A stretch of DNA of 64,000 bases from Eledone cirrhosa (GCA_964016885.1 OZ024742.1:34410001-34474000), one strand, 5' to 3'; positions 895-63,413 are shown, counted from the stretch's first letter. Translations and numbers: made by a program. The notes: generated by a model not told the origin, from the sequence alone.

Positions 895-1195
895 AACAAT
901 GAGTTATTTAATTTGTTGATTATTCAACAAAATTAATCTATAACAGATTAGAAGCACTCAACAGCGTTTCTTCTGGAGTATAATATCAATAATATTAATA
1001 AATGGAAACTATCTTTGTAAAACCATATTTATTTTATTATATATATATTTCAAGGATACCAGTATTTTGGTACGATATCGTCAGACAATAATTGTATTTT
1101 ATCTGACGATAGCGTACCAAATTACTGGTATCCTTGAAATATATATAATAAAATAAATATGATTTTATAAAGATAGTTTCCATTTATTAATATTA
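895..1195. mobile_element. Fold-back non-coding PLE-derived element (long minus arm, short plus arm), hammerhead in both arms
   Basis: About 989-1086 is the reverse complement of about 1101-1196 with a few mismatches. Flanked by TA repeats. Related to 2763-2957, 33480-33697 and 49199-49352. Confidence 0.8.
1097..1153 (+). ncRNA. Minimal type I hammerhead ribozyme
   Basis: TTTTAT-CTGACGA-stem II (gtacca/tggtat)-GAAA-TATATA-TA-ATAAAA; stem I TTTTAT/ATAAAA. Confidence 0.75.
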
Positions 1196-1324
1196 TATAT
1201 ATATATATATATATATATATATATATATATATATATATATATATATATATATATATATATATATATATATATATATATATAAATATATATATATATATAT
1301 GTAATAAACAACATAAGGCAATTA

Positions 1325-1386
1325 TTCCATTTACTAGTGGTTTCTTAAAAGCAAAAAATGTTGCTTTCAATCATCAGAATGAAAAA
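1325..1386 (-). ncRNA. Minimal type I hammerhead ribozyme (inverted copy of 2043-2103)
   Basis: Minus strand: TTTCATT-CTGATGA-TTGAAAGC..GCTTTTAA-GAAAC-CACTA-GTA-AATGGAA. Confidence 0.75.
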
Positions 1387-2042
1387 ATCCTGGTCTGTTT
1401 ATTGAATTTGGATTTTAAAAACAAAAATGCAATCTATATGAAAGTGAGGCTGGAGAAAGAAGAAGGAAAGGAAAAATAAAATAAAAACACACATGCAAAC
1501 ACACACACACACACACACACACACACACACACACACACAAATGCATACATACACACACATATATATATATATATATATACATACACTCATACATACATAA
1601 ACACATATACACATATATATGTGTATATAAATACACACATACACATACATATACACATACATACGCACATAAATATCAACACATCCATACATACTCATAC
1701 ATATATACAACCACGCACACATATATACACACATATATATGCACAGAAATATAAGTATATATATATATATATATATATATATGCATACACATACACATAC
1801 ATAGCCATACACACATACATATACATACATACATGCACACAATCATACCTATATACACACGTACATACATACACATACATAAATGCATACATATGCATGT
1901 ACAAAATTACAAAAATATACACACACCTCTACATATTCACACACGCAAATAAATATAAGAACAAATATATATAAAAAATAAAATAATAAAATAATAAAAT
2001 AATAAAATAATAAAATCTAAATTCAATAAACAGACCAGGATT

Positions 2043-2103
2043 TTTTCATTCTGATGATTGAAAGCACAATTTTTTGCTTTTAAGAAACCACTAGTAAATG
2101 GAA
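2043..2103 (+). ncRNA. Minimal type I hammerhead ribozyme
   Basis: TTTCATT-CTGATGA-TTGAAAGC/GCTTTTAA-GAAAC-CACTA-GTA-AATGGAA; GUA cleavage triplet. Confidence 0.8.
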
Positions 2104-2762
2104 TAATTGCCTTATGTTGTTTATTACCTAACTATTAAGCTCTGTTACCTACATAGAGCACTCTTTTTTCCTGGTCTTTTCCGACGGAATTACTTCATTT
2201 ATATATATATATATATATATATATATATATATATATAAATGGATATCATATAAATTCCACTGCGTAAATATTTTTGAATTGCTTCGATGTCTGTGAATAA
2301 ATGAGACGGTGGTGTGACAATATAAGATTTCTTTTAAGGTAAATGAAATGTATTTATTCATATTGAATATCTCGATCCACATTTGTTCGAGTAACGAAGA
2401 AAATGGAATGTAGAAATATGTTATTAAAATTACGACTTCAACCTCCTGCAGTAAAATTGTTAAACCACATATGACGTCTGCTGCCTGATGGCGTCCGGTG
2501 TCCCCCAACCCGTATTAAGTGTAGGATTAGTTGTTGTTCTAGATTACCTTTTTTTTTTTACTTTATGTCTAATGTTGTATATATTTTGTAGGTTGGGCTG
2601 CGTTTAGGTGTATGAAAAATATTTCATAGGGTTATGGTGCATCACTGTTTTGGAGTCACTTTTTAGCGTTAATGTAGAGGCAATTAACAATTAAGGTTAT
2701 ATATGTCTCTCTCTTCGTGCAAATAAATAAATAAATATATATATATATATATATATATATAT

Positions 2763-2957
2763 GATATTAAACAAATGGAAACCATATTTTTAATATGATA
2801 TCTCTGAAATATATATAATGAAATAAATATGGTTTTATAAATATAGTTTCCATTTGTTTAATATCGTAAACCTACTCCAAAACCTGTTGAGTGCTTTTAT
2901 ATCAGTTATAAAATATTTACTCGTTGTAACCCAACAATTTTAAATAAAACTTTTGCA
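2763..2957 (+). mobile_element. Short PLE terminal-repeat fragment with a 20-bp inverted 5' arm
   Basis: gatattaaacaaatggaaac (2763-2782) pairs with gtttccatttgtttaatatc (2846-2865). The body is near-identical to 33545-33697. Confidence 0.7.
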
Positions 2958-3275
2958 TATATATATATATATATATATATATATATATCAAGTAACAATA
3001 TTTTCGAAACAGCGAGTGGGTTTGAAATTATTAGAAATGTAAGCTATCGCCGTATTTTGACTAAAGAAATTAAAGAAATTATTTAGCCTGATAGTGGGGT
3101 TAAGAACCCTCGGAGAAATGGAAAAAGATGAGTATTGTTGTATATATATATATATATAAAAGAAATGTAAATCTGAGCTTTTCGAATATTAATAATATTT
3201 GATAGGTTTGCAATTAAGCCATGTCAGTAGAATGACCCCGTCATTCTTCCTCTTCTGTTGGCGTATAAACAGAAG

Positions 3276-3318
3276 GGCAGACACTAATGTTTCTGGGTGA
3301 TTAGCCTTCATCAGTACC
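3276..3318 (-). ncRNA. Type I hammerhead ribozyme inside a small inverted-repeat element (about 3262-3533)
   Basis: Minus strand: GGTA-CTGATGA-(weak stem II)-GAAAC-ATTAGT-GTC-TGCC, GUC site. A partial inverted copy lies at 3490-3530. Confidence 0.6.
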
Positions 3319-3647
3319 GTATACTGCTTACCTGCCAACTGTCAGAGCTAGTGAAAATATATAATATTTTCTGGAACATATAGTGACAGATTGCCTGATT
3401 TGCATATTAGCAAACTGGATGATCAGTCAGATCTGCATATCCACTTATCAACCAGATTTGCATATCTGACAACTATCAGTTGGCAGGTAGTAATCACACA
3501 GAAACATTTGTGTCTGCCGTTCTGTTTGTATGGGTACTTGCTGGCCTTGTGCCAAAAGTAGAAACAATAATATCTGAAAAGCTCAGATTTACTTTTCTTG
3601 TATAGAGCGATAAAACTATTTGTTAGTTATTATATATGTGTGTATAG

Positions 3648-3840
3648 GGCAGTGGATTGGCAGTATCGGTGGAGGGTCGGACGCCTTGCTTTGCAGTATA
3701 GAGTTACGGCTCTTTATGATCTGAGTTCAAATCCCGCGGAGGTTAACTTTGCCTTCATCCTTACGGGGTCGATAAATAAAGTACCAGTCACACACTGGGG
3801 CCGATTTAATTGTCTATCCCCTCCCCCCAAAAGCTGGCCC
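3648..3840 (+). mobile_element. tRNA-derived SINE (abundant family)
   Basis: A-box-like TGGCAGTATCGG, B-box GAGTTCAAATC, core ttgccttcatccttacggggtcgataaataaagtaccag. At least 15 copies in the window. Confidence 0.85.
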
Positions 3841-61089: not shown

Positions 61090-61315
61090 TATATATATAT
61101 ATATATACATACACACACACATACATATACGCACACACACGCACACTTCCACACATACATACATATGGATACATATACACACACATATACATATGCGTGT
61201 ATGTATATGTATATGTGTGTATTTATGTATCCATATGTGTGCATGCATGTGTGTAAGTTTGCGTGTGTGTGCGTATATGTATGTGTGTGTGTGTATGTGC
61301 ATATATATATATATA

Positions 61316-61527
61316 TAACGAAGGAAGTGTGGTAAGGAACCAGGTGAACCATAACGCACCAGAGTACTCGATACTTAGGGTAGTAGAGTGGGTAATAGGA
61401 AAAGAGTCAGGACCCTGACGGCAGAGCTCAAGCCGTTTCGACGCCTATTTCTGGACTCACTGTTTCTGTCCAGGAATAGCCGTCGAAACGGTTTGAGCTC
61501 TGCCGTCGGGGTCCTGACTCTTTTTCA
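61316..61527. mobile_element. Fold-back element (long minus arm, short plus arm)
   Basis: 61399-61456 pairs with 61468-61526; carries only the GAAAC half of a hammerhead-like motif. Confidence 0.8.
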
Positions 61528-61771
61528 TATATATATATATATATATATATATATATATATATATATATATATACAAATAAAGATTCAGCGAGAGGAAAGG
61601 CGAAGCGAAACGCAAAAATCAGAAATGATACTGGCAAAGTGCTCAATAGTTAAAAACTAGAGCTAAACAATGTGTTAAGAAGCCATACAAAACTGAAAAG
61701 GTGGTCAAGAAGGCATTAACCACCCAAGCCAAAAACCAAATCAAGCTAAACAGGTCAAAACAAAATAAATG

Positions 61772-61960
61772 ATAAGGGTGAAAGCAGTATTTGTTTGTTT
61801 AAACTGTTAATCTGTGCTATTAATATATATATATATATATATATATATATATATATATATATATATATATATATATATATATATATATATATATATATAT
61901 ATATATATATATATACCACAGATTAACAGTTTAAGCAAACAAATACTGCTTTCACCCTTA
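61772..61960. repeat. About 45-bp inverted repeat flanking a (TA)n tract
   Basis: taagggtgaaagcagtatttgtttgtttaaactgttaatctgtg pairs with cacagattaacagtttaagcaaacaaatactgctttcaccctta. Confidence 0.85.
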
Positions 61961-62888
61961 TACTGTATTTTCTGAAATTGAGATATATATCTATCTATGG
62001 ATGCTGAGATAAATATTTGGAAAGATTACAAGGAAATATGACATTTAAAAATAGAAAGACATAAAGGCGACTTGAATATTGAATTATATGTACGCAAGTA
62101 TATATATATATGTGTGTGTGTGTATGTGTATATATATGTTTATGTTTCAGTTACTCTGAAGATTATGCTCCAATGACGTCAACCATGTGAAGGCTTTATA
62201 TATTTGGAAATATTCCAGTTTTCACAAATACACACACACCACACACATGCAGAAACTCGAACGCAAGCAAAACTGATGCATAACGGAACTCTCTGAGCCA
62301 CTCCGAATGTCCCACCATCTCCAGTAAGGACGGATAGGCATACGAAATCTATCGGGAGTAATATGTATTATCAACGCACAATCTCTCGTTTCTCATATTT
62401 CCATCCCTTTCTTCTAAACCGTCTTTTCTCTCTCCTTCCTTATCCGGCTTTGTTACTTTAATATTTAGATAGCGATTTACAAATCAAATCATACCCACTT
62501 TTCACACACGCATACTAGTCACCACACACACGTATATATGCACACACACGTATATATACACACACACACACACACACACACACATACACATACACACACA
62601 CACACACGCACACACACACATATATATATATATATACGTATATGTACGAAGAAAGTGTGGTAAGGAACCAGGTGGTCCATAACGCACCAGAGTACTCGAT
62701 ACTTAGGGTAGTAGAGTGCGAAATGTATATATATGTATACGTTATACACACACACACACACACACGCACACACACACATATATATACATGTGTGTTATAC
62801 ATATATACATACACACACACATATATATATATATATATATATATATATATATATATATATATATATATATATATATATATATATATAT

Positions 62889-63015
62889 AATTGTTTCTAC
62901 TTTTGGCACAAGGCCACCAAATCCCCAGTGTATTACTGGTACTTTATTTTATCGACCCCATAAGGATGATAGGTACAGTTAACCTCGGCGGGATTTGAAC
63001 TCAGAATGGCAAGGG
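62889..63015 (-). mobile_element. 5'-truncated tRNA-SINE
   Basis: Standard core and tail. Confidence 0.8.
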
Positions 63016-63054
63016 CCAATATAAGATCAAAAGATGGTTAAAAGAGTTCCGTGT

Positions 63055-63123
63055 ATTTTATTATGCGCATTTCAAAAACAAATATCATCATGGGATGATA
63101 TTTGCGTTCTCATCAGATAAAAT
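63055..63123 (-). ncRNA. Minimal type I hammerhead in a solo terminal repeat (63020-63185) of the 4537/12699 family
   Basis: Minus strand: TTTTAT-CTGATGA-GAACGCAAATATCAT..ATGATATTTGTTTTT-GAAA-TGCGCA-TA-ATAAAA. Confidence 0.78.
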
Positions 63124-63203
63124 AGGGTGACATGATATGAAGCTTAAAAAACACTTGCGTGCAGTGAAGTGTTAAATCAACATATATATATATATATATA
63201 TAT

Positions 63204-63413
63204 AACGAAGGAAATGTGGTAAGGAACCAAATGGACCATAACGCACCAAAGTACTCAATACTAAGGGTAGTAGAGTGGGTAACAGCAAAAGAGTCAAGAC
63301 CCCGACGGCTGAGCTCAAGCCGTTTCGACGGCTAATTCTGGACTAAAAGATTTTTAGTCCAGACTTAGCCGTCGAAACGGCTTGAGCTCAGCCTTCGGGG
63401 TCCTACTCGTTCC
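63204..63413. mobile_element. Fold-back element, same family as 61316-61527
   Basis: Turn at ctggactaaaa-ga-ttttagtccag; arms about 63285-63348 and 63351-63412. Confidence 0.8.

Follow-up and report, generated by a model that had tools for sequence, protein, structure and literature searches.

The genome of Eledone cirrhosa raises a question about how one group of mobile elements fixes the limits of its own insertions. A stretch of 64,000 nucleotides (GCA_964016885.1, OZ024742.1:34410001-34474000; hereafter the window, at its full length) contains many fold-back elements embedded in (TA)n, each with a long arm and a shorter inverted arm, and the extra tail of the long arm often carries a box reading GAGTRCT. 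The original prediction held that this box lies at a nearly fixed 23-33 nt past the end of the short arm in families that share little else, and that it is a cis-acting ruler of Penelope-like elements (PLEs) of the Naiad kind, positioning either the nick of the GIY-YIG endonuclease or the start of reverse transcription. What, then, does the box mark? The answer developed below is that it forms the 3' strand of a base-paired hairpin, that PLEs of the Hydra clade carry this hairpin twice between a hammerhead core and the start codon, and that insertions end just before one copy or the other; the hairpins probably tell the copying enzyme where to start.

The host genome, 3.0 Gb in size and rich in (TA)n, was sampled as 120 independent, evenly spaced 10-kb stretches outside the window, and both the sample and the window were searched, blind to the motif, for inverted arms beginning at a (TA)n edge. 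Ends were therefore ascertained at (TA)n, with insertions into other targets uncounted. This search yielded 140 asymmetric fold-backs in 59 clusters, 126 of them outside the window. A contig scan of marine metagenomes supplied a second set of 77 Hydra-type loci in 58 families.

A hairpin beside the short end

All eleven boxes counted by hand in the window are in place, 24-34 nt from the short-arm ends claimed for them, and most fit GAGTRCT, the exceptions being those at 11494 (GAGTACA) and 49257 (GAGAGCT). Four boxes in tails described as unpaired (10563, 29396, 33628 and 60812) are likewise present. The enrichment extends beyond the window, as a box occurs at +21 to +35 from the short end in 40 of the 126 sampled fold-backs (9 clusters), compared with 0.5% of random positions; the peak is found in several families, while many families and clusters lack any box. 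The near-fixed distance did not hold, however. Family medians range from 24 to 103 nt (standard deviation, SD, 23.6), the box lies at +36 to +120 in 8 of the 126, and the window itself has a case in which 76 nt separate the box (60812) from its short end (60736).

What stays in place is the partner of the box. The 5' strand of the hairpin (RCTC) lies 5-14 nt from the short end by family median (SD 1.8; 9±2 nt overall), and 8 nt from it in the 60736 case. The distance really measured is thus the one to the base of the hairpin, with a mode of 6-9 nt, and the box wanders because loops vary in length, families 14, 18, 30, 43 and 58 and the second hairpin of family 8 having long ones. This 5' strand stands at +1 to +16 in 44 of the 126 fold-backs (14 clusters); the counterpart is 0-6 for eight offset windows, 0.32 after shuffling and 0.4% for random DNA. 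In the window, seven of the eleven listed cases have an intact partner strand, and the other four, judged partly by eye, have a one-letter change in the same place.

The hairpin can be written 5'-(G/A/T)CTC-stem-loop-stem-TN-GAG(C/T/A)-3'. In the tails it runs from (G/A)CTC through a short upper stem, a loop, the partner stem and a 2-nt bulge starting with T to GAG(C/T), with an interior of about 5 to 85 nt. The T/C variation in the box is compensatory, ACTC occurring with GAGT and GCTC with GAGC, and TCTC occurs with GAGA in metagenome elements. For 26 hairpins of similar loop length, RNAalifold returned unprompted a helix of 4 bp, a 2-nt bulge and 3 bp, with 93% of 182 cells paired and 34 double-sided changes; none of 500 shuffles matched this, and slid controls were 20-54% paired. 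Of 18 hairpins drawn from nine families of this genome, all have a complementary first upper pair and 17 a complementary outer pair. When metagenome boxes were chosen blind to pairing, 65 of 72 family-level cases had a CTC partner. In the 58 metagenome families, 61 of 65 cases have a complementary first upper pair (C-G in 43, T-A in 15) and 55 of 65 a complementary outer pair; the next three upper pairs are complementary in 36 of 62, 34 of 52 and 22 of 34. Each of these three includes every Watson-Crick type, and no more than 5 of 2000 shuffles score as high. The 3' strand, GAGCACT, is also conserved in sequence past its paired part. Finally, a strict hairpin pattern occurs in 49 of 114 metagenome flanks, against 3 in antisense and 1.3 after shuffling. 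By this covariation, the element is a paired structure.

Two box-less clusters, 5 and 21 (e.g., L083:333 and L077:8119), share ACTCGTGT-NNN-ACACCTC at an equal distance from the short end, a candidate for a second class of positioning hairpin. Clusters 6 and 12 (e.g., L083:3812 and L034:7602) are fold-backs with tails of 230-400 nt and an octamer-like word, ATGCAAAT.

A second hairpin and the rule of ends

Upstream of intact open reading frames (ORFs), the order is hammerhead core, an interval of about 50-65 nt, the hairpin just described (hairpin 1), a second copy (hairpin 2) and, some 25-70 nt further on, the ATG. Under the strict pattern, metagenome hammerhead-to-ATG intervals hold at least two hairpins in 22 of 33, spaced 55-83 nt apart. 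Given this order, hairpin 2 was predicted to lie just past the long end and never at insertion ends. A genome search with patterns that demanded part of the motif found it there in families 0, 7 and 8, at 6, 8 and 6 nt beyond the long end and in 79, 86 and 88, respectively, of the first 100 matches listed. It also occurs in read-through copies that were found without the motif, in families 1, 3, 10, 43 and 58. As read from their sequences, Hydra-clade PLEs carry twin hairpin copies between the hammerhead and the start codon. The tail as first described was accordingly incomplete, since a second hairpin past the long end marks that end.

The fold-backs are the ends of PLEs, and two coding fragments in the window are attached to fold-backs and orient them. 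The C-terminal part of a Hydra-clade PLE ORF (59161-60129, minus strand), with a CxCx5C linker and a GIY-YIG-type endonuclease, is part of the fold-back at 58770-60896, and a broken Hydra-type endonuclease fragment of family 7 (5703-6025, minus strand) lies in the element at 4538-6064, which stops at the short end. The tail is therefore a 3' extension, and the box lies on the sense strand.

To map ends, 6012 (TA)n edges from the sample and window were placed on ten natural read-through copies, and 180 proved to be sense 3' ends. Of these, 156 lie 0-16 nt before hairpin 1 or 2, mostly 6-9 nt, in a zone that makes up 8% of positions. The other 24 include thirteen from family 43 that correspond (8 were inspected) to an unrelated repeat, ending in (GAT)n, next to the reference copy; with this family excluded, 155 of 166 ends stand before a hairpin. 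Among the metagenome loci, 11 of 18 termini other than contig ends fall 0-4 nt before a hairpin, microhomology included. Moreover, the two ends of a single fold-back are not drawn freely from the two sites. In 49 fold-backs, 41 pairs were long with short, none long with long, none short with short, and 8 included an unclassified end; were ends independent, 41 mixed pairs would have a P of about 4e-13. With most ends before a hairpin and every classified pair long with short, tail length follows the spacing of the hairpins, 67-165 nt in this genome. Both the paired structure and the rule of ends are well supported. The 5' reach of the arms, compared in 34 fold-backs (short-site arm further in 16, long-site arm in 5, equal in 13), is confounded by palindromic references and was set aside.

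Many family-0 fold-backs are only about 190-210 bp long (window 61318-61526 and 63205-63413; L011, L018, L057, L089), and their two arms both break off at a local palindrome, a hotspot for the inversion junction that lies 55-60 nt upstream of the short end. These short copies look like miniature inverted-repeat transposable elements, but are PLE ends.

The ORF-linked carriers are Hydra-clade elements

Full-length copies identify the carriers. The 58770 family has one in L131, with hairpin 2 and a single ORF of 910 aa in which the reverse transcriptase (RT) is followed by a C-terminal GIY-YIG-type endonuclease; a Pfam search of this ORF gave no match, so the endonuclease was assigned by motifs. 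Its protein has RWK (RVRWKA), DKT (SDKT), CxCx5C, CxxC and CxH, and lacks CCHH, and the Hydra clade is defined in PMC8557442 (Craig et al. 2021) by RWK, DKT in place of DKG, CxCx5C and CxxC/CxH, without CCHH. Other carrier families have RW[KR] or KWK and DK[T/A] or HKT, and all ORF-linked hairpin families show Hydra motifs. In the metagenome set, RW[KR] occurs in 58 of 77 loci and DK[TS] in 67, and CxCx5C, CxxC and CxH in 73, 70 and 70, respectively. A hammerhead core pattern lies 5' of window hairpins and is present in 33 of 57 metagenome upstream regions, families 0 and 58 having only a variant core, seen by eye. The carriers insert into (TA)n. By their motifs, the ORF-linked carriers are of the Hydra clade and not Naiad, whose N-terminal endonuclease and lack of a canonical hammerhead contrast with the C-terminal endonuclease and hammerhead core patterns found here.

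Of the six Hydra consensi in print, inspected by eye, one from a coral and two from sea cucumbers show the hairpin, and a copepod one contains a variant. Six box 9-mers gave eight matches in the PMC8557442 supplement, four of them in Hydra hairpins and four in Naiad or Chlamys parts that are apparently coding and lack the hairpin.

That dissimilar families carry the element was borne out: the N-terminal proteins of nine families are 28-55% identical, and the terminal regions of ten references gave a single blastn match among them. In a quick tree of this genome's carriers, 64 relatives that bear the motif and two PLE families without the box, the carriers form one deep clade nested among these relatives and well away from the box-less pair, with branches of 0.4-0.7 changes per site. 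Since these families form one clade, the motif is, on the sequences, shared by descent, yet kept through saturating divergence. It follows that the carriers are not a single recent family in which the box would be passive homology; they are deeply diverged, and their flanking non-coding DNA is unalignable. That the motif is a functionless remnant of a recent common ancestor has a negligible chance of being right: this genome's families are indeed one clade, but 58 metagenome families retain the motif with changes that compensate one another, and covariation and divergence together refute the idea.

Several searches were negative. Among the matches listed in an Rfam scan of the window (150 of 210), there were only simple-repeat-driven matches below the gathering score. 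A homolog search with the C-terminal region gave none at E<=1e-20, and the RT region succeeded as a query. No relatives were found among viral contigs, and a PDB sequence search with an alignment as query returned no match.

A DKG-type family without the box (family 13; window 8952-10363 and a read-through copy) has a tail of about 40 nt and no such hairpin; for family 2, a second PLE family without the box, no read-through copy turned up. In box-less DKG-type PLEs (window 8952-10363 and 27170-28080; L268), the roughly 40-nt tail lies inside the ORF start, and a similar TATA(A)CCTC word, which may be a further duplicated signal, stands close to each end. A box at 27499 was rejected, as it has no partner strand and belongs to family 13. 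Likewise, an apparent link of the hairpin to a non-Hydra endonuclease in L023 was rejected as a nested insertion. Hydra units also occur in tandem. L276, L277 and L284 hold head-to-tail full-length units with periods of about 3.5 and 3.9 kb and both hairpins at every junction, and L283 (G000:C2:169702500-169704000) holds the family-8 terminal region five times in tandem, as 183-bp copies that each include hairpin 1, in an array resembling non-LTR (long terminal repeat) retrozyme arrays. Many copies of Hydra units are 95-99% identical, which suggests recent activity.

How the hairpins might set the ends

The original claim of a cis-acting, position-setting PLE element stands, in diverged families and not through recent descent, although what sets position is a base-paired hairpin with a variable loop and not a linear box at +23-33. 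Of the two roles offered for it, the start of reverse transcription is here preferred to a ruler for the nick, by inference. The hairpins likely tell the copying enzyme where to start, each docking one RT, a view with probability on its side that would explain the PLE tail as the product of marked start sites. In detail, the hairpin would act in the sense RNA as a putative protein-binding site, docking an RT and placing it a few bases upstream. The protein, probably as a dimer, would take both hairpins of one RNA, and each (TA)n 3' end would anneal immediately 5' of a hairpin through some 1-5 nt, with the target's two nicked strands each primed from a site of its own. The complementary DNA (cDNA) started at hairpin 2 would copy hairpin 1, which becomes the box in the tail; the cDNA started at hairpin 1 would give the short arm; and the two would join by microhomology into a fold-back. 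The strict pairing of long with short ends argues that a single event uses both sites, the simplest agent being a dimer bound to one RNA. This programmed twin priming, in which a duplicated RNA hairpin loads two telomerase-like RTs per transcript, each priming one strand of a cut (TA)n site in fixed register, and in which the tail is the spacing of the docking sites, is offered tentatively, its chances being a little short of even.

A number of observations weigh against docking, or against the pairing and duplication on which it builds. Pairing is the first of these. The covariation counts are of sequences and not of events, and the three invariant CTC/GAG core pairs are uninformative. In single-sequence folds, only 4 of the 15 scored window copies form the helix with a probability above 0.9, and most minimum-energy folds of window copies, many of which are decayed, lack it; so weak a helix would need support from a protein. 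Regarding strand, G.U exceeds A.C by 15 to 7 (p=0.067), which leans to the sense strand, though the hairpin may instead form in the cDNA or antisense strand. As for the duplication, 11 of the 33 metagenome intervals hold fewer than two strict hairpins (one in 8, none in 3), with variants visible by eye in several; the counts for families 0, 7 and 8 depend on the part of the motif that was demanded; family 4 has only a degenerate second hairpin; and a family-8 pattern search with a gap of 12-36 nt missed hairpin 2 because its interior is 65 nt. The consensi Hydra-1_Amil and Hydra-1_Obim, two of the six published, show no clear hairpin by eye, and 7 of the 18 metagenome ends lie 12-86 nt off, several having been mapped on another family's reference. 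Finally, the model offers no explanation of how two RTs could copy overlapping stretches of one RNA.

The best-surviving alternative, although an unlikely one, is that the hairpins act in single-stranded cDNA or in an antisense template, where they would guide the GIY-YIG endonuclease in cutting or resolving a transposition intermediate at the A/T-rich site beside each hairpin. The wobble counts are compatible with the other strand, and the end positions fit a cut as well as a start. PMC8557442 attributes the tail to endonuclease-mediated resolution of an intermediate, PMC11167929 (Frangieh et al. 2024) reports earlier work in which the D. virilis tail is needed for recognition by the endonuclease, and PMC3846280 proposes antisense self-priming. 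On the other hand, the G.U excess leans to the sense strand, the ends adjoin (TA)n directly, as target priming predicts, and in the one reconstituted PLE the genomic tail ends fall at the sites of RT initiation on the sense RNA (PMC11167929).

Considerably less probable is that the hairpins serve translation control or a promoter near the ATG, the ends being set by neighbouring TA microhomology. Hairpin 2 does lie close before the ATG, a minority of ends falls at other TA-rich template sites (families 1, 3 and 4), and a TATA-like stretch in the pseudo-LTRs (pLTRs) has been proposed as a promoter element (PMC3846280). However, the modal end sites match TA by only 0-5 nt, equal or better TA stretches elsewhere, including those of at least 5 nt, receive few or no ends, family 58 ends sharply at a site with a 1-nt match, and microhomology alone cannot yield 41 of 41 mixed end pairs. 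More improbable still is a linear box at a fixed 23-33 nt that sets the nick or start in the manner of a homing-endonuclease spacer: the peak at +21 to +35 and the conservation of GAGCACT past its paired part speak for it, but the box wanders among families where its partner strand does not, its fourth letter changes with that partner (G-C, A-T, T-A), and the long-loop families largely refute it.

Relation to known systems

The twin priming proposed for the hairpins has a namesake in L1, where both target strands reportedly prime on one RNA and produce an inverted arrangement; there, chance complementarity reportedly decides at which of varying internal sites the second primer lands, and the 3' end is not duplicated in the arms. 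By contrast, both sites are here fixed beside a structure, and the arms overlap. The R2 3' untranslated region, telomerase RNA boundary elements and the hepatitis B virus epsilon element dock an RT next to its template. The likeness is that a small bulged helix fixes the register of cDNA initiation, as proposed for the hairpins, and the difference is that the element here is 3' of an internal start and is duplicated.

Closer systems include the Hydra clade itself, described in PMC8557442. Its members share with the present elements a C-terminal GIY-YIG endonuclease, RWK, DKT, CxCx5C, CxxC/CxH, (TA)n targets and an inverted 5'-truncated copy, and their hammerhead in the pLTR has a counterpart here in the core pattern. 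They differ in that tails of 30-40 nt are given there, against 60-165 nt here, and in that the parts examined contain neither the twin hairpin nor its link to the ends, File S2 annotating hammerheads only. Another is PAc, of the Poseidon clade. According to PMC11167929, both strands of its target are nicked and then extended, the tail is bounded by two internal sites at which reverse transcription begins, and RNA lying 3' of the start is needed; these features, and a predicted dimer, resemble the proposal. PAc belongs to another clade, however, and its starts lie in one AC-rich stem-loop inside the ORF, with no repeated positioning element identified in the parts seen; the GCUC/GAGC hairpin is absent from the RNA stretch printed in Fig. 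S1. Full-text literature searches and the parts consulted of PMC7229834, PMC4209133, PMC3846280, PMC13282606 and bioRxiv 10.64898/2026.07.22.740005 yielded no description of the motif, a scope outside which subscription papers, Repbase notes, most supplement parts and bioRxiv supplements lie. The cis-element is real and, within this scope, apparently undescribed, although the clade that carries it is known; it is distinct from the linear ruler first proposed and tells more.

The tail of PLEs and their inverted terminal repeats have long been puzzling, and both PMC8557442 and PMC11167929 call for a mechanism. Being short, covarying and duplicated, and predicting both ends of insertions throughout a clade of metazoans, the element makes the mechanism of tail and fold-back directly testable with defined variants. 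It would also supply a minimal RNA for structural work on the RT lineage closest to telomerase and a sequence tag for annotating the very numerous short, ORF-less fold-back repeats. A portable cis-signal for RNA-templated insertion into (TA)n is suggested as well, and, if twin priming is true, any RNA that contains the pair of hairpins could be written, from both ends, into microsatellites.

Hairpins and other repeats of the window

The nearest named relatives of the proteins come from a cephalopod. Hairpin 1 copies are spread throughout the window. On the plus strand, the family-8 copy at 2139-2162 (GCTC-TGT..ACA-TA-GAGCACT) has its short end mirrored at 2127 and its long end at about 2199, and a family-1 copy at 2874-2895 has its short end mirrored at 2865 (hairpin 2 of this family being in L017). 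A second family-1 copy (33612-33634) lies 3' of a hammerhead core at 33508-33548, as does the hairpin at 29373-29402 (ACTC-TAGGG..CCCTA-TT-GAGTGCT) with its core at 29170-29211. Degenerate or altered plus-strand copies include the family-0 hairpin at 11474-11500, its 5' strand point-changed to ACAC (by eye, against family members); the family-23 hairpin at 44831-44858 (ACCC), with a hammerhead core at 44718-44759 and the short end mirrored at 44821, intact in the family's copy L045; the family-57 hairpin at 58595-58625, by eye, with the short end mirrored at 58584; and a decayed family-4 hairpin at 10545-10569, by eye against its family. The long-loop case, GCTC-TGCTA..TAGTA-TC-GAGCACC with 52 nt in the loop, occupies 60744-60818 on the plus strand of the fold-back at 58770-60896.

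On the minus strand, the tail of the fold-back at about 895-1193 holds ACTC-CAG..CTG-TT-GAGTGCT (953-979; short end mirrored at 992). Its family includes the degenerate copy at 49257-49281, had one read-through candidate among 4 matches, and shows hairpin 2 in one read-through copy, L265. A family-7 copy, ACTC-CAGT..ACTG-TA-GAGTGCT (12753-12780), belongs to the fold-back at 12699-13558, with the short end mirrored at 12788. Family 0 accounts for a degenerate copy, by eye, at 11670-11700, one at 61363-61389 (short end mirrored at 61398), a tail-only fragment at 62691-62717 and one at 63250-63276. Two minus-strand hairpins were absent from the original prediction: a hairpin 1 with a 20-nt loop and the box at +40 (50033-50071), and an intact GCTC-TAGTT..AACTA-TT-GAGCACT (61638-61663).

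A 287-bp direct repeat at 11758-12673, of which one copy ends at (TA)n and the other reads through a decayed hairpin at 12056-12080, is probably another Hydra family. At L023:4150-5990 and window 1038-1193, PLE fold-backs are nested at the AT-rich ends of other PLE fold-backs.

Other repeats share the window. A decayed non-LTR retrotransposon at 17031-22800 retains RT frames and a frame like ORF1 and finishes 3' in (ATT)n, with a second 3' fragment at 16384-16860, and further fragments of long interspersed nuclear element type lie at 6555-7379 (plus), 51997-54499 (minus), 25866-26875 (minus) and 45868-46365 (minus). A decayed stretch at 14300-15350, judged by eye from motifs, resembles a mariner-type transposase. 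Finally, an abundant repeat family resembling short interspersed nuclear elements often forms inverted pairs at (TA)n edges, at 3531-3832, 23979-24635, 31484-31774, 39971-40921 and 62890-63005.

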